Assembly: GCA_039679675.1 (NCBI GenBank)
Contig: JBDKUN010000065.1
Span: 32,001-96,000 of the forward strand
DNA from: Armatimonadota bacterium
Lineage (GTDB): Bacteria; Armatimonadota; UBA5829; DTLH01
Length of the DNA: 64,000 bases
Reading direction: 5' to 3'
A program made the position numbers and the translations under genes. Shown here in pieces: positions 13,352-21,126 of this stretch. A model generated the notes under the pieces. The model did not search any database. It worked only from the letters and a program-made list of their open reading frames with translations, and was not told where the DNA came from. Positions within the stretch are counted from its first letter, which is position 1. Each line of letters starts with the position of its first letter.

Positions 13352-14985
13352 ATTTTCCGGTAGACCTTTATCGTCGGTGACATATACTTCAGGTCATGCG
13401 GCAGGTTTTCGGTCGGACCGAAGGAGATATTGAAGGCTTTCAGATCTCTTTTGAATACTGCAACCTCTTTGTAAGACTTTTTCAAGCCTTCCAAAAACTT
13501 CATAGCGCTTGGAACCTGCAGCCGAACGGCATCTTCATACTCAAAATCGGTCATTACGATATATTCCGGCATTTCCTCATTCACAATCGACGGGTCCCAT
13601 TCCCCGCCGGGACCGGGGTTGACCTTGATACTGTAGCGCGAGTTAAGCGTCCCCTGAAACCGGTCGCTCCGGTTTACAGCCGTAGAGTCCGGCGAGATCG
13701 GTGGAGTATAAAACCACGGCACAGTCGGAAGCCCGATTGCAGCTGACGGCTTTATATTATCACTGAACCACTGCGCAGCCTGTGTTCTCGTGTCCGGTGC
13801 CAGGAACAGCAGGTCGAAAGATATCGCATAAATGCAGGTATAGCCTACTGCAGCAACGCATATACCGGCCCAGACCCACCTGAGCATCGCCGTCCCCTGC
13901 TCTTTCGCCACCTGGTAGACTTCCACTATCATACGGCCGACGAGTACCGCAAGAGGCGGAAGTATCAGGATCATATAGCGGGCGAACCTTACTTCCGACA
14001 TTGAGATCATCGCGTAGTAAGGAAGCACGAACGACAGTATAAGCCAATCAGCCGGTTTCCGGCGTACTACAGCCAGTGCGACTGCAGCAAGGACCACCAC
14101 AAGCAGAAATACCCCAAGCCCATAACCGAGCGAGTTGGAAAGAATATCGAGCCAGCCGGGACCCTTCCCCACAAACACAAGCCCATGCCCGCTTCCCGCG
14201 TGCCTTAGCTCGTAAGTAAACCCTTCGATGAACCGACCAGGACGAATAAGGACCGCCGGTGTAGAGATAAGAAATCCGGTCAGGAACGAGGGTGCTATCA
14301 TCCAAAACCTAGAGTCTTTCAGCCGCTTCAGGACTGAGACCTTGCCTTCTCTCAAAAAATGAGCCAAGAGAACTGGGATCAGCACAACTCCCGCGTTATA
14401 TTTGGTACCTGCGGCGATACCTGCCACGATGCCTGCCGCAATGTACCATTTAGGAGCCGGTTTTGCGATAATCATCGCTGAAGCAAGTAACGTTACAGCT
14501 ACCCAGAATGCGGCGGGGACATCTACCGTTGCAAAATGAGAGTGAACGATGTGAAGCGGAATGATGGCCATAATGACGGCAGCTAACACGCCTGCCGCAC
14601 GTCCGTAAAGCCGGTTTGCGGCCCCGTAGACGGCCAAAACGGTCAGCGTGCCGAGAATAACGACGGTAAGCCTGGCAATCAGATAGACACTGACAAGCGT
14701 TTTGTCTATCGTTACCCCGTAATACGGCGCGGTATGAACCGCAAGCGCGCCGAGGTTCATATATCCTGACGGATAATTATAGAAACCAGGGTCGAGCTGA
14801 AACGAAAATGGGTCGATCCTCAGCATAGCACCGATCTGGAAGATTTCATCCGGATGGTATGTAAACTGATGAAAAGCGTCGGGCAAACCCCAGTGGATAC
14901 CCCATATACGGAGTACAAACGCAGTGATCGTTATAAAAGTGACTGCAGCAGTCACCCATAGCTTTGCGGCAGGTTGTTTCTTCAT
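13348..14985 (-). CDS. GT-C superfamily (ArnT/PMT-like) membrane glycosyltransferase
   Basis: HPDE loop motif, YNYPS, HSHFATVD, TKY, RY motifs, many TM segments; ATG overlaps the upstream stop (TAATG at 14983-14987). Confidence 0.8.
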   Translation of the reverse strand: MKKQPAAKLWVTAAVTFITITAFVLRIWGIHWGLPDAFHQFTYHPDEIFQIGAMLRIDPFSFQLDPGFYNYPSGYMNLGALAVHTAPYYGVTIDKTLVSVYLIARLTVVILGTLTVLAVYGAANRLYGRAAGVLAAVIMAIIPLHIVHSHFATVDVPAAFWVAVTLLASAMIIAKPAPKWYIAAGIVAGIAAGTKYNAGVVLIPVLLAHFLREGKVSVLKRLKDSRFWMIAPSFLTGFLISTPAVLIRPGRFIEGFTYELRHAGSGHGLVFVGKGPGWLDILSNSLGYGLGVFLLVVVLAAVALAVVRRKPADWLILSFVLPYYAMISMSEVRFARYMILILPPLAVLVGRMIVEVYQVAKEQGTAMLRWVWAGICVAAVGYTCIYAISFDLLFLAPDTRTQAAQWFSDNIKPSAAIGLPTVPWFYTPPISPDSTAVNRSDRFQGTLNSRYSIKVNPGPGGEWDPSIVNEEMPEYIVMTDFEYEDAVRLQVPSAMKFLEGLKKSYKEVAVFKRDLKAFNISFGPTENLPHDLKYMSPTIKVYRKI

Positions 14986-15611
14986 TAGTCCGGGCAACCT
15001 TCCTTTGCTGCTCGTGAGGTTTTCGACTTTTTCGGACACATCGTTAGCTGGATCAGGATAAATATGCCAACAGCCATCAGAACATCGCCAATGCTGAATA
15101 TCCCCGAAAACACCTTTGAAAGCCCACATGGAAGAGCATCCGTAATGAGTTTAGGCACCGGTATAGTATCTCCCAGGAAATTGAATTTTGACCAGGCGCT
15201 ACCAGACATTACGATGTGTCTCATACCTTCTGACCGATTCAATACATCCGCCACTCCCGCTATGGCAGCGGCTTTTTCGGAAACAGGCATCTTTCCAGCG
15301 TTAAGCACTATCGGAAACAGGTTCAACACCCATCCGGCCAGGAACCACTTCATCCCCGGCAGTTTTCTATTCGCCCAGAAAAATACAAGAAACGCAATGC
15401 TCGCGATTATGTGCAGCAGGCCGGTCAGATGGGACCAGAGGATGGTTTTACCTAAATATTTCCCCAACACCATGGAAACGATGATAATGAACGCCGGGAT
15501 AAAGACAAGCCACAGGCTTTTTATCTCCAGATCCGCAAGCCGCCGGAGCCGCCCGCGGCGTATGAGCGCTATTATAATCGAGAGAATACCGGCCTCAAAC
15601 GCCAATTTCAC
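14985..15611 (-). CDS. DUF5317-like membrane protein with signal-peptidase-II-like motifs
   Basis: Hydrophobic; GxxLN...NAGKMPV, FLGDTI, IFSIGDVL; likely start GTG 15611 or TTG 15605 overlapping the upstream gene end. Confidence 0.75.
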   Translation of the reverse strand: MKLAFEAGILSIIIALIRRGRLRRLADLEIKSLWLVFIPAFIIIVSMVLGKYLGKTILWSHLTGLLHIIASIAFLVFFWANRKLPGMKWFLAGWVLNLFPIVLNAGKMPVSEKAAAIAGVADVLNRSEGMRHIVMSGSAWSKFNFLGDTIPVPKLITDALPCGLSKVFSGIFSIGDVLMAVGIFILIQLTMCPKKSKTSRAAKEGCPD

Positions 15612-16293
15612 ACCTGCCTTCATTCTTTTCAAGGACTTTCAAAAATGCATCCACAACTGAAGGATCGTATTTATTACCGAAACCACTTTTTATCTGCAAT
15701 ATAGCCTCTTCCTTCGGCTGAGACTGATGATATGGTCTGTCCGAAATGATGGCATCATAATCGGTAGTTACAGCAAGAATACGTGATGCAAGAGGTATAT
15801 CCTCACCCGACAACCCATCAGGATAGCCGGTCCCATCCCAATGTTCGTGGTGATGAAGGATCGAATCCCTCAAAAATGAAAGCGACGGCACTGCCTGTAC
15901 CATATCCGCACCGAGTGTCGAGTGACTCTTTACTTTCTCCCACTCAACAGGAGTCAGAGGCTCGCTCTTGTTGAGCAGCATTGCCGGAACATTCACCTTC
16001 CCGATGTCCCTCAAAAGCGCGGCATATTCTATCTCCAGCCGTTTATCTGTATCTATCCCCAGCTCATCCGCAACAGCAGTCGCATACTCGGCTACCCTCT
16101 TTGCATGGCCGATGGTACCAGAGTCCCTGGTTTCGACGGCAGCCGCAAGAGCATAAAGCGCCTTTTTGAAGGCTAACTCCATCTTGCGAGGTTGATAGAA
16201 GCTGGAATAATACCAACTTCCAAAGGTTATGATCGCAGCAACAGCCACCGCGATTATAACCGGCGGTGTCCACTGGCTAGCCATTGCCTCCAA
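15595..16293 (-). CDS. Single-TM HD-GYP domain protein with degenerate HD motif
   Basis: ETRD...GH, LRDIGK (H to R), HHHEHWDGTGYP, SDRPY; start ATG 16284 or TTG 16293. Confidence 0.85.
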   Translation of the reverse strand: MEAMASQWTPPVIIAVAVAAIITFGSWYYSSFYQPRKMELAFKKALYALAAAVETRDSGTIGHAKRVAEYATAVADELGIDTDKRLEIEYAALLRDIGKVNVPAMLLNKSEPLTPVEWEKVKSHSTLGADMVQAVPSLSFLRDSILHHHEHWDGTGYPDGLSGEDIPLASRILAVTTDYDAIISDRPYHQSQPKEEAILQIKSGFGNKYDPSVVDAFLKVLEKNEGRCEIGV

Positions 16294-17824
16294 CCCTTAT
16301 CCCCTCCCTGTCGACCATCTTGAGAAATGCATGCACAACATCCGGTGAAAATTGCGATCCGGCGCCTCTTCTAAGCTCGTTGATCGCATCATCGACACTA
16401 AGCGGTTCTCGATATACTCTGCGTTTCGGAGCGCCGCAGACAGGGCATACTTCCGGGCGCTCGCCGTTTTCAGCCTTGAAACCGCATGCATCGCACTCCC
16501 AGTCCACGGACATCTCCCGGTCATCCGTCATAGCATCGAATGCATCCGCAACAGCGATAATTGCGGCCTCCAGCGGAACTCCGCCGTTTTTCACTCCATC
16601 GTCAGGATAACCCGCACCATTTGCCCATTTGTGGTGATACTTTATCCAGTCTACTGTCTGGTTCAAAAAGTCGATATGCTCGACAATTTCTGCGCCTTTT
16701 ACCGGATGCTCTTTGATCTTCGACCATTCCTCATCCGTCAGCTTTCCAACTTTGTCCAGGATTTCCTCAGATACTCCCACTTTTCCGATGTCATGCAGCA
16801 GCCCAGCATAAGGCATAAGCATAATCGTCTCGGTGGAAAGCCGGAGTTCTCTTGCAAGCCGCTCTGAAAGCTCAGCAACGCGCTTCAGGTGCCCTCTTGT
16901 ATACGGATGGTAATGCTGCATATAGGTACCTAATGTGGCGATAGTATCCATATACATTTTCTCTCGCTCGACAGCTCTCTGAACCGCGAGACGGAGTGAA
17001 AGAAACGGCCCAAGCGCAACTAATCCACTCAATATACCGACATGAAGATACAGATAGATCAAAAGGACCGTGACCGGCGGAAGCAGCAGATATTGGCTCC
17101 ATGTCAGGCGGACGCTGCCCAGAAGCAAGATTTTCAACCTCAGGACAAAGCTGTACCAATCACTGCCTTTTTTAGGCGATTGAGGCTCATTTACCAGAGC
17201 TGCAGCAGCGCACCGCGCTTCATCAACTATAAAATATGTAATTATGCCGACTAAAAACGGCAGCGCGGCATGCAGGAAAAGCATGCTGTTTGAAGCGGAC
17301 ATAAAGTACCGCTGATCCAGAACATGCCCCCCTACGCATCTGTACGCAAGAGCTGCAAGTCCCACATTTATTACATCAAGCGCAGTATTGGCGATTATGA
17401 TTTCAAGTGCCCAGAAAAACGGATAATTCGCTCTACCTTCCCAGGCACCCGCTAAAGTCCTGATAATACTGTGAAGGCGGGTCGTTCCGGTATCTGATTC
17501 ATGGTTTTTCAGCCACCTGGCACACACCCATCCGGTAATATTGACGACAGGTAAAGGAATTGCGGCGACGAGCATTGCGAGGACAGGTCCGAACAGCACC
17601 ATTGCAGCCCAATGCATGGGAACGCTTATCGTTACTTCTCCCAAGCCATGCGGCACTGTAATAGGAGTTAGCTCCGACCATATTGCAAGTATTGCAAAGG
17701 CTAATGCCCCTTTCCAGACACCTGCCTCAGGCGGAATCACCCATAGCATTACGACTGCTATAGCCACCGCGGTCACTATCGATCCGCGGTAAAATAGATG
17801 AAACGACCTCTTACTACTTGCCAT
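16277..17824 (-). CDS. Multi-TM sensor plus HD-GYP phosphodiesterase with rubredoxin-like insertion
   Basis: Several hydrophobic segments, LLHDIGK, EHP, HHK..GAGYP, ADAFDAMT, inserted CDAC-x12-CPVC. Confidence 0.88.
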   Translation of the reverse strand: MASSKRSFHLFYRGSIVTAVAIAVVMLWVIPPEAGVWKGALAFAILAIWSELTPITVPHGLGEVTISVPMHWAAMVLFGPVLAMLVAAIPLPVVNITGWVCARWLKNHESDTGTTRLHSIIRTLAGAWEGRANYPFFWALEIIIANTALDVINVGLAALAYRCVGGHVLDQRYFMSASNSMLFLHAALPFLVGIITYFIVDEARCAAAALVNEPQSPKKGSDWYSFVLRLKILLLGSVRLTWSQYLLLPPVTVLLIYLYLHVGILSGLVALGPFLSLRLAVQRAVEREKMYMDTIATLGTYMQHYHPYTRGHLKRVAELSERLARELRLSTETIMLMPYAGLLHDIGKVGVSEEILDKVGKLTDEEWSKIKEHPVKGAEIVEHIDFLNQTVDWIKYHHKWANGAGYPDDGVKNGGVPLEAAIIAVADAFDAMTDDREMSVDWECDACGFKAENGERPEVCPVCGAPKRRVYREPLSVDDAINELRRGAGSQFSPDVVHAFLKMVDREGIRVGGNG

Positions 17825-17953
17825 TCAAACCATGTGGGCTGTCTAGAGCTTAATTTCGATGCTAGAGCAATGGCTCTAGTCTATAGTATGCCATCTTTGA
17901 AGCGTAACCTCTATCGGTAAAGACGGCGAATATTTTAGCATAATAATAAAATT

Positions 17954-18240
17954 ATTGAGCCAACGGCAGCGACAGTTTTATTTCAGGAACTGCTGTGTAC
18001 CTGCATACATCCATCAGTTCAATAATTGTAAACTATGGTGGTGGCCACTGTCTCCATGTGGCTCCGCAGGTTGCAGCCAGTGTCGCCAATGCGATCAGTA
18101 CCTTGAACAGGCGTTTCATGTTTTTCAACCCCTTTCGCGTGATACTACCCCTTACCGCTCAGATGGGGTGCATTCATCGCTTCGCTCGGGTTGACTTTTC
18201 CGCTCATTTTTGGATCTGCCGCTCGCGCCGTTGGCTCAAT
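17954..18240 (-). promoter_or_regulatory. Long-range inverted repeat enclosing the small peptide gene
   Basis: attgagccaacggc (17954-17967) is the exact reverse complement of 18227-18240; pairing extends about 8 bp past a 3-nt bulge with a G-U pair on the minus transcript. Confidence 0.75.
18033..18119 (-). CDS. Unannotated 28-aa secreted peptide precursor MKRLFKVLIALATLAATCGATWRQWPPP
   Basis: AAAGGGG RBS then ATG; basic N-region, hydrophobic core, GA, short Trp-rich tail; same strand as flanking genes. Confidence 0.8.
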   Translation of the reverse strand: MKRLFKVLIALATLAATCGATWRQWPPP

Positions 18241-18247
18241 TTGAAAA

Positions 18248-18901
18248 CTATTCTTTAGTTATCAATGTGGTTCGCCGGTTAATGGCATCCAGTGTAGCAT
18301 TAACCACAGCTTTCCATAAATCCTGCCTGACTATCGCGGAACCTGTTAAATAATCATCCCCGCGGTTCGTGACAAAATTGATCAATACTACAACAATATT
18401 CTTTCCGGCAAGATTGACTCCTGTGGTCATGTCTTCGACTACCATAGTACCGTCAGCCGCGCCTGCATCTTCGACCGCGCGCAGCGTTGCAGTCGCAATG
18501 AGCTTCATCTGGCTACTGCTCGAGCTTAAGCCCGTAGCAGTTCCCGTGTAAGCCACACCGTCTCTCCCTAAATGGACCGTAGCCTCTGCTCTGCTCCCTT
18601 CAAGAGAGATCGAAACGTCTGAAAACTTTAATCTGCCCTGCTCCTTTTTCTCATTACCCTGAAGTTGAGCTACGCTGACCTTTCGATGATCCAGCTGGAC
18701 GCCAAGTTTGGCCATAACCGCCGATTCGATGTCACGCACAACCTGTTTTGGGGCTCTACTTGCTTCCGTCAGAACGTGAATCTCCTCGATCTCTCCATCA
18801 TCGCCGGAAACTACCCGCGCAGATATCACATCGCGCAGCCGGCATATAACGGACTCAACATCAATCAGGTCGTCGATATTTTCTTTTCTTTCGACTGCCA
18901 T
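18248..18901 (-). CDS. Conserved cytoplasmic protein (PKQVVRDIES motif), C-terminal half resembling the LeuA allosteric domain
   Basis: EIHVL...PKQVVRDIES...DHRKVSVAQL; duplicated beta-beta-beta-alpha pattern ending AVVNATLDAINR; AAAGGAG RBS. Confidence 0.7.
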   Translation of the reverse strand: MAVERKENIDDLIDVESVICRLRDVISARVVSGDDGEIEEIHVLTEASRAPKQVVRDIESAVMAKLGVQLDHRKVSVAQLQGNEKKEQGRLKFSDVSISLEGSRAEATVHLGRDGVAYTGTATGLSSSSSQMKLIATATLRAVEDAGAADGTMVVEDMTTGVNLAGKNIVVVLINFVTNRGDDYLTGSAIVRQDLWKAVVNATLDAINRRTTLITKE

Positions 18902-19035
18902 TCTCCGCTCTCCTTTCGCCGCTACTTCCTTAAAGCGGCGCCCTCTCTTTTCCTCGCTTCGCCATTCGTGACTTTTATCGTCCGAATGGTCCTTTGCCTG
19001 AAAACCGGCTATATAATTCTTGCACCGTTCTTCAG

Positions 19036-21126
19036 CTACCCACGGAATATCGCTTTGAACTCCGATGCAAGATTATCTTTTATTTTTTCAAGAACAGCGT
19101 TGATTTCCTCGTCCTTAAGTGTACGTTCTTTCGATCTGAAAACTATTGAGAGTGTCAGACTCTGCTCATCCTCGCTCACATGCGGGCCGACATATACGTC
19201 CAGAAGGCTCACATCTTCAAGAATAGCCCCACCTGCTTCGATAACTGCTCTTCTGATGTCACCATAGGGCACATCCCGCTTCACAACGGCAGCAATATGC
19301 CTGTAAAGAGCCGGGAACTTCGGAAGATGTTCGTATACTATCTTCTCAGGAACAAGAGACTTCAGTTTCTCAACACTCAGTTCAAATATATACGGACGTC
19401 CCTTTATATCCAGCTCGTTTATGACTTCAGGAGCGACTTCACCGATGATACCTATCTCTGCATTACCGGCTGTAATCTTTGCGGCTCTGGTCGGGTGAAG
19501 CATAGGGTGCTCAGTGCGCTCGAACCTCACACCGGAAATCTTCAATCTGTCGAAGATATTCTCGACAACTCCCTTTATGAGATAAAAATCAGCCGCCATC
19601 GCTTCTTTATCCAGGTTCCAAGAGTTTGACCACTGATTTCCGACCATTGCACCTGCCACTGACAGCCACTCGGTCACAGCTTTGTCCTTTTCCAGCCAGC
19701 GATAGACTTTACCGATCTCGTAGATGCTCATATCACGGATCCCGTTCGCCTGGTTCCTCACGATGACCCGGAGCAGGTTCGGTGCAATCATTGTCCTCAT
19801 CCCCGCTGTTTCCCAACTGAGCTGGTTTCGCACGAAGATAGAGTTTTCCTGACCGGCGATTCTGATGCTGTTATGATCTATAAGGCTGTGTGTAAGGACT
19901 TCCTGCATCCCTGAGGACATAAGCGTCCGCCGCATTTCCTGCACGAAAAGCCCCATGTCGCTGTCTTTGCCCTGGAACGGCGCAGGCGGAAGAGTGCTGC
20001 CGATGCTCTCATAGCCATAAGCTCTCGCAATCTCTTCGATCACATCTGCCTCGAGCCGTATATCCGGCCTGAACGTCGGAACCGTTACGACAATATCTTC
20101 ATCTTCAAGAGTTGCAGGTATCTGGTACACTTCAAGGAATGACACCATTTCCTGGGCACTCAAAGAGGTGTCGAGCATTGCGTTTACCCGTTCAGGGCGG
20201 ACAGTAACCTTGAATATGTTATCTTTGGCAGGATACAGGTCTACAAGGCCTTCGGCTATTTCGCCGTCAGCCAGGTCCCGCATAAGCTCAGCGGCTCGTT
20301 TGGCTACCATGTCAGCTGTGCCGATATCCACCGAACGCTCAAACCGGTAACTGGACTCTGTTACGATACCGAGCTTCTTTGAAGTCCTTCTGATAGAGAC
20401 CGGATTAAAGTGCGCAGACTCTATGAGAATATTCTTCGTGTCGGGTTTTACCTCAGAATCAAAGCCGCCCATAATCCCTGCAAGCCCGACAGCGCGGTTT
20501 TTATCAGCAATAACGAGCATGTCAGAACCCAGCTCGCGCTCTTCACCGTCAAGAGTAGTCAGCTTCTCGCCGGCATTTGCGCGACGGACTATGATCTCTT
20601 TCCCCTCCAAGAGGCTGTAATCGAACGCATGCAGTGGTTGTCCCATCTCAAGCATCACATAGTTGGTGATATCCACTATGTTATTGATCGGCCTCATGCC
20701 TGCGCGGATCAGCCGGTTCTTCATCCAGGCTGGGGAATCCTTTACCGTCACATTGCGGACAACGACGCCGACATACCTGTCACAGAGGTCAGGATCTTTA
20801 ATAGTGATCTTTATCTCCGATGCGGATGAAGGCGGAACGCCTGAAGCTTCAGGCTGGGGTATTTTGACGGGGCTTTTGGTAAAAGCGGCGACTTCGCGGG
20901 CGACACCGATAAGCGACAGCCAGTCCCCTCGGTTCGGCGTGACTTTCGTAAGCATCACGCGGCTGTCCACAGCATCAGGCATGCCTCCTGCGTGGGAGAC
21001 CTCTTCACTTTCCATCGAAGAGATCTCCTCGACCTCAAGCCCGGCCATAGTAAGCTTATCAGCCAACTCCTCGACTGATCCGCCTGTCTCTACATATTCA
21101 TTAAGCCATTCAACTGGAACTCTCAT
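19036..21126 (-). CDS. pheT: Phenylalanine-tRNA ligase beta subunit (short form without B2 OB domain)
   Basis: TPNRGD, INNIVDITNYV, GQPLHAFD, RFERSVD, RPDI...EEIAR, FDX-ACB C-terminus. Confidence 0.95.
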   Translation of the reverse strand: MRVPVEWLNEYVETGGSVEELADKLTMAGLEVEEISSMESEEVSHAGGMPDAVDSRVMLTKVTPNRGDWLSLIGVAREVAAFTKSPVKIPQPEASGVPPSSASEIKITIKDPDLCDRYVGVVVRNVTVKDSPAWMKNRLIRAGMRPINNIVDITNYVMLEMGQPLHAFDYSLLEGKEIIVRRANAGEKLTTLDGEERELGSDMLVIADKNRAVGLAGIMGGFDSEVKPDTKNILIESAHFNPVSIRRTSKKLGIVTESSYRFERSVDIGTADMVAKRAAELMRDLADGEIAEGLVDLYPAKDNIFKVTVRPERVNAMLDTSLSAQEMVSFLEVYQIPATLEDEDIVVTVPTFRPDIRLEADVIEEIARAYGYESIGSTLPPAPFQGKDSDMGLFVQEMRRTLMSSGMQEVLTHSLIDHNSIRIAGQENSIFVRNQLSWETAGMRTMIAPNLLRVIVRNQANGIRDMSIYEIGKVYRWLEKDKAVTEWLSVAGAMVGNQWSNSWNLDKEAMAADFYLIKGVVENIFDRLKISGVRFERTEHPMLHPTRAAKITAGNAEIGIIGEVAPEVINELDIKGRPYIFELSVEKLKSLVPEKIVYEHLPKFPALYRHIAAVVKRDVPYGDIRRAVIEAGGAILEDVSLLDVYVGPHVSEDEQSLTLSIVFRSKERTLKDEEINAVLEKIKDNLASEFKAIFRG

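Follow-up and report, generated by a model that had tools for sequence, protein, structure and literature searches.

We analysed a 64,000-nt stretch of DNA from an Armatimonadota bacterium (assembly GCA_039679675.1, contig JBDKUN010000065.1, positions 32,001 to 96,000 of the forward strand; this whole stretch is called the window here) and report that a minus-strand open reading frame (ORF) of 28 sense codons, located between the gene of a 217-amino-acid (aa) protein and the gene of a membrane HD-GYP protein, is, on comparative sequence evidence, a genuine protein-coding gene. Judged from alignments of its relatives, the ORF lies within an RNA of conserved structure with a covarying clamp helix and a covarying hairpin, and microprotein and RNA together are apparently a widespread and undescribed module on MASE9-type HD-GYP phosphodiesterases. 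We consider it moderately probable that the peptide is a membrane-embedded partner of the adjacent HD-GYP sensor and that its translation is gated by the leader RNA, and the function proposed earlier from the window's sequence, a secreted or lipidated precursor, is probably wrong.

Coding evidence within the Armatimonadota

The frame had been put forward in an original prediction as a hidden peptide gene with an ATG start and a GGGG-type ribosome-binding site (RBS). Both signals are borne out by the sequence and by translation of positions 18030-18119, the ORF being on the minus strand, which the prediction had not stated: the ATG occupies 18119-18117 and the TAG stop 18035-18033, and within the RBS, GAAAGGGG at 18136-18129, the Shine-Dalgarno (SD) core GGGG at 18132-18129 is separated from the ATG by 9 nt. 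With 87 nt including the stop codon, the micro-ORF falls below the minimum length of a common gene caller (about 90 nt). The ORF listing contains in addition a 31-aa form of the same frame (18033..18128), which begins at an upstream in-frame TTG.

Homologues of the 217-aa gene are found in 25 of 41 related genomes, and in all 25 syntenic loci the micro-ORF is located directly 3' of it on the same strand. Over the first 22 codons of this Armatimonadota set the entropy amounts to 0.83/0.475/1.47 at codon positions 1/2/3, the third position being the most variable, and the ratio of non-synonymous to synonymous differences (pN/pS) is 0.41 in frame compared to 1.09 and 2.35 in the shifted frames. 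Because the ORF is kept in place in 25/25 loci and the substitution pattern is frame-specific, it is far from what chance would produce. The claim of a hidden peptide gene thus holds, with purifying selection acting at the codon level, and codon-level conservation in related genomes, one of the checks that the prediction had named for itself, is observed. Peptide and leader are each present in one copy in the genome of the window. When the 41 relatives were searched for both genes, 25 contained both, 15 contained neither and one, G020, contained the peptide alone.

A hidden Markov model (HMM) of the 25 peptides yields 36 clear matches (E <=1.1e-7) in 401 genomes of the phylum, all of them in the class of the window; outside this class the Armatimonadota-only model yields no credible member within the phylum. 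Eight weaker matches (E 4.8e-4 to 9.4e-3) fall within longer ORFs (82-1134 aa) and were not credited. A second small upstream frame (..NPSEA(V/M)...) was rejected as well, its start and stop not being conserved, and is a by-product of the invariant leader sequence GAGCGAAGCG.

The peptide family across phyla

The wider peptide family was reached through synteny only and not by the Armatimonadota HMM. Examining 47 loci of the 217-aa protein family, we find an SD-preceded hydrophobic ORF of 23-31 aa downstream in nearly all of them, and in a second set the micro-ORF is present at 69 of 80 loci, 66 detected by script and three (L159, L212 and L219) by inspection. Seven of the 11 remaining loci have a flank of at most 266 nt. 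The other four (L211, L213, L215 and L217, the last two from Moorella/Neomoorella) are without the microgene and also without an adjoining membrane HD-GYP gene and without a match to the leader. In G020 (L220, G020:C223:12300-14303) there is no 217-aa gene, and the micro-ORF is found at 1436-1522, about 80 nt past pheT, the next frame being a membrane ORF truncated by the contig end; the leader model described below (R1) finds nothing there. G020 and the four loci which have the 217-aa gene and lack HD-GYP gene, microgene and leader alike indicate that microgene and HD-GYP gene are inherited together. In nearly all loci it sits between the 217-aa homologue and the MASE9-type membrane HD-GYP gene.

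Members of the peptide family, for which 109 distinct sequences give the consensus MSRLFKVLLALATLVLAGGASFKW, are also found in Bacillota, Actinomycetota and Sumerlaeota, with peptide lengths of 24-43 aa (median 25). Typical members are hydrophobic, comprise 24-31 aa and show a basic N-terminus, an apolar core of 14-17 residues with basic residues on its flanks and a short tail of aromatic/basic character; the core contains the small-residue motif LxLAGGA, which hardly varies. Conservation is highest inside the apolar stretch, i.e. at L11 (85%), L14 (90%), G19 (99%) and A20 (95%). In the peptide of the window the small-residue motif reads TCGA and the tail WRQWPPP. Frame-specific substitution extends beyond the Armatimonadota: for 107 ungapped distinct sequences from several phyla pN/pS is 0.58 in frame versus 1.01 and 1.58 out of frame, with entropies of 1.27/0.85/1.82 at the three codon positions.

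Gemmatimonadota encode divergent peptides at the same cassette position, e.g. MTLVFDFGWFAGLIAAIVRLLVQDMGGTNSW. The mini-peptides of the Gemmatimonadota loci L121-L135 read MTLVFDFGWFAGL..GGTNSW or MLFSSLFDFFGEALAVMARGLLSW with the AGCG leader being retained, and three Capsulimonadaceae loci (L097, L098 and L099) show a different mini-peptide at this position, MISKMIKTITSVVNGC..FFP.D. Replacement of the peptide or its strong divergence may account for the difference in both groups.

No Pfam or NCBIfam model reaches its cut-off for the tested peptides (10 for Pfam, 9 for NCBIfam). The Pfam model LPAM_1 scores 14.4 bits, below its cut-off of 20, and the NCBIfam models PhrK and NprX score 14.2 and 16.3 bits against a cut-off of 35 and 9.4 bits against a cut-off of 75, respectively. 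In the ESM Atlas the 31-aa form gives sub-threshold matches only (0.84).

A structured mRNA enclosing the ORF

The transcript around the microgene, whose structure the original prediction had missed, is predicted to form three helices, a long-distance clamp helix P1, a hairpin P3 and a helix formed by an anti-SD strand and the 3' part of the SD region (Table 1). The 5' strand of P1 begins 8 nt past the stop codon of the 217-aa gene. The core of P1 is a perfect 14-nt inverted repeat (18240-18227 / 17967-17954) which flanks 259 nt and of which the genome contains only these two copies. In an alignment of 23 sequences both-side changes are present in 13 of the 15 pairs of P1, with 89.2% of the cells being paired, and in 9 of 9 pairs of P3 (85.9% of cells paired); G-U pairs are found in P1 on the sense strand. 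For the structure as a whole 86.8% of the cells are paired versus 79.1% in shuffles, of which 0 of 500 reach the observed value, and versus 27-46% with slid partners. The 295-nt unit of the window has a minimum free energy (MFE) of -109.2 kcal/mol (z = -5.68, reached by 0 of 200 shuffles), and its single-sequence MFE structure shows P1 (14 + 8 bp), the anti-SD helix and P3 without comparative input.

The leader is further characterised by repeated AGCG motifs and by the invariant core mentioned above, located at 18187-18178. In other phyla 3-6 AGCG copies are present in the same region at 74 of 80 loci, the six exceptions including the four cassette-less loci. Similarity of the intergenic DNA reaches the level of the order. 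A covariance model (R1) built from the 23 Armatimonadota leaders matches at the expected site and strand in Bacillota (E 1.4e-5 to 0.012), Gemmatimonadota (E 0.005 to 0.18), Actinomycetota (E 0.01 to 0.04) and at one Sumerlaeota locus (E 3.9e-8); its matches overall extend to E of about 0.5, and its reach is limited in that it misses several peptide-bearing loci. A clamp stem of at least 10 bp with a CCRRC/CCGG core is formed by 81 of 127 cognate 5'/3' pairs versus 68 of 635 non-cognate pairs, the count being conservative since some groups have another core.

Rfam gives no match in the element with E up to 10 when positions 17000-19200 are searched, two weak matches lying outside the element, and no match at the element in 10 homologous loci with E up to 1. 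Promoter-like sites number three compared to 1.3 expected, which is not significant, and no terminator was found.

Multicopy matches of 24 nt to leader positions 66-89 in the genomes G009, G010, G013 and G032 were set aside, as they represent a repeat resembling repetitive extragenic palindromes (REP-like), GTCATTCCGAGCGAAGCGAGGAAT, in unrelated contexts. This repeat (G013:C1:1807423-1807782, i.e. L083; also L084, L085, L086 and L087) is multicopy in further genomes of the order, is arranged in tandem with 168-nt spacing in G013, lies in one G009 copy between tRNA genes, and has the GAGCGAAGCG core in common with the cassette leader. At these look-alike sites Rfam reports only tRNAs and a weak TPP match nearby.

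Table 1. Coordinates of the cassette genes and RNA features in the window
Feature	Positions	Strand	Description
217-aa gene	18248..18901	minus	upstream cassette member; no Pfam/NCBIfam family
Clamp helix P1, 5' strand	18216..18240	minus	core AUUGAGCCAACGGC at 18240-18227, extension AGCGGCAG at 18223-18216
AGCG leader	18156..18223	minus	five AGCG: 18223-18220, 18204-18201, 18186-18183, 18181-18178, 18159-18156
Anti-SD UCAACCC	18188..18194	minus	complementary to GGGUUGA at 18131-18125
Hairpin P3	18145..18171	minus	stem CCCC/GGGG in the window, UGAGCG-containing loop
SD region	18125..18136	minus	GAAAGGGGUUGA, invariant or almost so across 23 aligned relatives; its 3' part, 18131-18125, supplies the 3' strand of the helix that sequesters the SD
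Micro-ORF	18033..18119	minus	28 sense codons and TAG stop; product MKRLFKVLIALATLAATCGATWRQWPPP
Clamp helix P1, 3' strand	17954..17975	minus	CUGUCGCU GCCGUUGGCUCAAU
Membrane HD-GYP gene	16277..17824	minus	515 aa; polytopic N-terminal domain, HD_5/HD, rubredoxin-like insert

The genes of the cassette and their surroundings

On the minus strand the genes follow each other in the order thrS, infC, rplT, pheS, pheT, 217-aa gene, micro-ORF, 515-aa membrane HD-GYP gene, second HD-GYP gene and DUF5317 gene.

The 217-aa protein is annotated as hypothetical in public sources, and the ESM Atlas returns only clusters of hypothetical proteins for it (0.94). Its AlphaFold2 model has a mean predicted local distance difference test (pLDDT) value of 85.5. 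In structure comparisons the N-terminal domain is of a ferredoxin-like alpha/beta type with generic matches only (Z 7-9), and the C-terminal half resembles the regulatory domain of LeuA/citramalate synthase (CMS), with Foldseek E values of 4e-6 to 4e-4 and a Z of 9.4 against 3f6g_B at a root-mean-square deviation of 3.2 over 109 residues. Foldseek matches of the model to double-stranded-RNA-binding domains (TM 0.16-0.25) were discarded as being too weak to claim RNA binding. A 448-aa CBS-CBS-GGDEF protein of the same genome (G000:C31:22520-23866; L136:721-2067, minus strand) ends in a homologue of about 135 aa of this C-terminal half (31% identity, E 1e-10), and a paralogue of about 450 aa of the CBS-CBS-GGDEF type is present in most relatives.

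The family of the 217-aa protein occurs also in Bacillota, Gemmatimonadota, Actinomycetota and further phyla and was confirmed in an alignment-based scan at no fewer than 562 places (i.e. at least 562) among GTDB species representatives. Using the Geosporobacter protein of this family as the sole query, matches were restricted to two Geosporobacter loci. Cultivable carriers include Desulfosporosinus species, Geosporobacter ferrireducens, Thermosediminibacter litoriperuensis and Formimonas warabiya.

The membrane HD-GYP protein of the window matches Pfam HD_5 with E 1.3e-27, and the profile of the Armatimonadota N-termini aligns with that of the MASE9-bearing group with an hhalign probability of 99.9% (E 5e-37, 274 columns). 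Of nine downstream cassette proteins tested, all nine carry HD_5 and six carry MASE9, and MASE9 is detected in 10 of 35 N-terminal 300-aa segments of cassette HD-GYP proteins. A membrane ORF adjoins the microgene in 23 of 24 Armatimonadota loci. In the second set an ORF of at least 100 aa follows the microgene in 56 of 66 loci, starting at a median of 46 nt past its stop, and 48 of these 56 ORFs match the membrane N-termini of the cassette. Residues 436-472 of the window protein form a rubredoxin-like Cys-rich insert (Pfam RUBY_RBDX, E 1.9e-7), an insert of a type not seen in the tested Bacillota cassette proteins.

The cassette HD-GYP gene is directly followed by another HD-GYP gene, which codes for a soluble protein (15595-16293), and by a gene for a DUF5317 membrane protein (14985-15632), both on the minus strand, and the presence of these genes (14985-16293) suggests a small cyclic di-GMP (c-di-GMP)-related cluster. 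Between the 3' strand of the clamp and the HD-GYP start, at 17841-17880 of the minus strand, three CTAGAGC/GCTCTAG copies are found, two of them arranged as a 7-bp palindrome with a CATT loop (17879-17862), with an AT-rich stretch just upstream; this site may be an operator or the promoter region of the HD-GYP gene itself.

A proposed membrane partner of the HD-GYP sensor gated by its leader RNA

The conserved apolar core, the co-occurrence with the HD-GYP gene and the structured leader are combined in the reading we prefer with moderate confidence, i.e. the peptide being a membrane-embedded partner of the adjacent HD-GYP sensor, the translation of which is gated by the leader. According to this model the peptide would enter the membrane as a single short helix with its basic N-terminus inside, the small residues forming one face of the helix and the aromatic/basic tail being placed at the far interface, and would act on the membrane sensor domain next to it, either as a modulator or as one of its small subunits, as MgrB does on PhoQ. 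In the default state of the RNA the SD sequence would be sequestered and translation of the microgene blocked, until a factor acting on the AGCG leader rearranges the leader and frees translation. The 217-aa protein would be the obvious candidate for such a factor, its RNA binding being purely hypothetical. P1 pairs the start of the leader with the 3' untranslated region and thereby encloses leader and ORF. In relatives in which the 3' strand of P1 lies 5-20 nt after the microgene stop, as is the case in Bacillota, translation of the microgene would open the clamp just before the HD-GYP start. MASE9 has been proposed to bind a ligand within the membrane, as stated in the accessible part of a preprint (10.1101/2021.11.05.467447).

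Several observations weigh against this interpretation. An apolar core of 14-17 residues is short for a membrane-spanning helix, and the small residues at -3 and -1 (C-G-A in the window, G-G-A elsewhere) would suit a signal-peptidase site. The peptides of Gemmatimonadota and Capsulimonadaceae are clearly different and more amphipathic or polar, so the sequence is not constrained alike everywhere. The Pfam model of MASE9 has no match in the HD-GYP protein of the window itself. The 3' strand of P1 is located in the window 58 nt after the micro-ORF stop and 130 nt before the HD-GYP start, distances which make coupling to HD-GYP translation less direct than in Bacillota. Finally, the anti-SD helix, although 93.2% of its cells are paired in the 23 sequences, shows no compensatory change, and owing to this invariance covariation neither proves nor disproves the helix, which is consistent with the data.

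A more detailed version of the model, in which protein, RNA and microprotein of the cassette form a self-contained device for the control of c-di-GMP, is improbable as a whole. Here, the 217-aa protein would sense a small molecule via its LeuA-regulatory-like domain and would attach to the (U/G)AGCG copies in the leader, similar to TRAP on its own repeats. The SD-sequestering helix within the 5'-3' clamp would be opened or locked by this contact, and the microprotein made in response would associate inside the membrane with the MASE9 domain, thereby switching the HD-GYP phosphodiesterase. If this version were true, the microprotein would be the long-sought intramembrane ligand of a MASE domain, and the AGCG leader would represent a new class of RNA switches that respond to a protein and are distributed over at least five phyla.

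Alternative explanations

The microgene might act as a regulatory upstream ORF, for which the act of translation matters and not the product, an explanation we regard as unlikely. Ribosomes, perhaps pausing at the Pro-Pro-(Pro)-stop end in Armatimonadota, would in this case remodel clamp and leader and set the translation or stability of the HD-GYP message. This would agree with the median of 46 nt to the HD-GYP start in 56 of 66 loci, with the 3' strand of the structure being placed between both genes, with a Pro-Pro pair near the C-terminus of 24 of 25 Armatimonadota peptides and with peptides that vary between phyla while the RNA motif persists. Specific residues are, however, conserved along the whole hydrophobic stretch across phyla, unlike in typical leader peptides, and the Pro-rich C-terminus is absent from the Bacillota and Actinomycetota members. 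A chain of 24-28 aa is still inside the ribosomal exit tunnel at termination and could thus not report membrane insertion as SecM and MifM do, which also counts against this explanation. Ribosome-arrest peptides such as SecM, MifM and TnaC have a conserved C-terminal arrest motif and an otherwise variable sequence, whereas here the N-terminal helix is conserved and the Pro-Pro pair is confined to Armatimonadota. Regulation by translation of the microgene is compatible with a membrane partner of the HD-GYP sensor, the two not being exclusive.

Export of the peptide, proposed originally in the form of a precursor of a short signal peptide or lipopeptide, appears quite unlikely. It would imply a Sec signal peptide that is cleaved after CGA or GGA and frees an aromatic/basic extracellular cue of 4-8 residues, which the neighbouring membrane HD-GYP protein possibly senses. 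The signal-like layout on which the proposal was based is indeed present, with n-, h- and c-regions and small residues at -3 and -1, and the proximity to a membrane sensor gene as well as a weak, sub-threshold likeness to PhrK, NprX and lipoprotein signal models (E 0.0087-0.84) point in the same direction. The residual tail weighs against it: 4-8 residues overall and 4-6 in most family members remain after the hydrophobic stretch, and these are the least conserved part of the peptide, consensus columns 21-23 reaching just 19-36% compared to 90-99% in the helix. Since a secreted precursor would be expected to carry its conservation in the exported tail, we disfavour this explanation, and a family scan of the neighbouring proteins revealed no TPR (tetratricopeptide repeat) family and no RRNPP-type receptor gene nearby. 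Lipidation would require an invariant Cys in a lipobox of the form [LVI][ASTVI][GAS]C that closes the signal peptide. The LAATC sequence was correctly described as not being a strict lipobox; the lipobox position reads A-A-T-C in the window, Cys is found there in just 9 of 25 Armatimonadota peptides with Ala or Ser in the other 16, and the consensus of the wider family has Gly.

The original prediction had named a type I toxin as its alternative, i.e. a peptide that damages the membrane, its message being inactive owing to 5'-3' pairing and a sequestered SD, with an antisense RNA as its antagonist. Such toxins are typically spread in a patchy manner, often in several copies and irrespective of their neighbours. 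A tiny hydrophobic product, an mRNA with a long-distance 5'-3' helix and a buried SD are features the microgene shares with such toxins, but peptide and leader exist as single genomic copies, the microgene has the same two genes as its fixed neighbours in Armatimonadota, Bacillota, Actinomycetota, Sumerlaeota and Gemmatimonadota, it is missing where the HD-GYP gene has been lost, and none of the promoter-like sites is convergent on the ORF, the last point being weak evidence. The single-copy synteny across phyla speaks against a toxin, which we therefore judge very improbable.

That the frame is no gene at all but a by-product of a non-coding structured RNA, or that the 14-bp repeats mark an invertible DNA switch, is hardly credible: the RNA structure is very strong and perfect inverted repeats flank 259 nt, but substitutions are frame-specific, an invariant SD and start codon stand at fixed spacing, for most of the ORF no constraining helix is predicted, the orientation is identical in 25/25 genomes, and G-T (G-U) pairs between the arms in several genomes fit pairing within one RNA strand and not identical DNA arms. 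Two DNA runs, from which the DNA of the window may derive, gave one colinear contig each without joints, contigs being blind to rare inversions.

Implications

Membrane-sensor HD-GYP phosphodiesterases are widespread and the inputs they sense are largely unknown. The co-inherited peptide of about 25 aa encoded just upstream is a candidate input or regulatory subunit for those of the MASE9 type. Our analysis adds a multi-phylum microprotein family that is uncovered by Pfam and NCBIfam models and a conserved structured RNA motif that has no Rfam match, and it links the domain shared with a CBS-GGDEF protein to the cassette module. The presence of the cassette in cultivable bacteria makes the question directly testable. 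In the literature, the supplements of the MASE9 preprint with their possible gene neighbourhoods aside, we found no description of the peptide, the leader RNA or the cassette, and no small membrane protein paired with an HD-GYP phosphodiesterase.

Comparison with known systems

By Pfam matches in part of the cassette proteins and by profile homology in the Armatimonadota group, the downstream gene is of the MASE9-HD-GYP architecture of T. maritima TM1467 and S. venezuelae HdgA, for which the accessible part of the preprint by Galperin and Chou mentions neither a small partner gene nor an RNA element upstream nor a companion gene for a 210-aa protein (10.1101/2021.11.05.467447). Small membrane proteins linked to c-di-GMP have been described in C. 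difficile, where 58-aa membrane-associated proteins are under the control of c-di-GMP-I riboswitches (2026, PMC13724677). According to the available part of that report these combine, like the cassette, a small membrane protein, a structured leader and a link to c-di-GMP, and they are multicopy, belong to a known riboswitch class and have no homologues reported outside C. difficile (PMC13724677). Unlike these, the peptide described here comprises 24-31 aa, is single-copy and is distributed over several phyla, its leader having no Rfam match.

With regard to the RNA, TRAP and HutP are RNA-binding attenuation proteins that recognise repeated (G/U)AG sites, and the cassette resembles them in having a leader with 3-6 copies of (U/G)AGCG beside a small protein with a ligand-binding-type domain. 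It differs in that the 217-aa protein is related to neither by fold or sequence, that the spacing of the motifs is irregular and that RNA binding is hypothetical. The mRNAs of hok-type toxins are characterised by a long-distance 5'-3' helix together with a buried SD, and the likeness to hok and AapA1 mRNAs, consisting in a tiny hydrophobic ORF, a closing 5'-3' pairing and an SD placed in a helix, is one of architecture only, as the microgene is present in a single copy at a syntenic position, is passed on with its two partner genes in different phyla, has repeated AGCG motifs and shows no evident antisense RNA.

MgrB-PhoQ, SafA-PhoQ, AcrZ-AcrB and KdpF-KdpABC are pairs in which a protein of fewer than 50 aa with one hydrophobic helix and a basic N-terminus is encoded beside, or co-regulated with, a polytopic membrane protein. 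The peptide has in common with MgrB-type modulators that it is tiny and hydrophobic, has a basic N-terminus, is encoded beside a membrane protein gene and is missed by gene callers. It differs from MgrB, SafA, AcrZ and KdpF in that its presumed target is a c-di-GMP phosphodiesterase, that it has no sequence similarity to them, that it occurs in several phyla and that its mRNA contains a clamp and a leader. By analogy, we infer that the nearest known kind is a small membrane-protein modulator of a membrane sensor.

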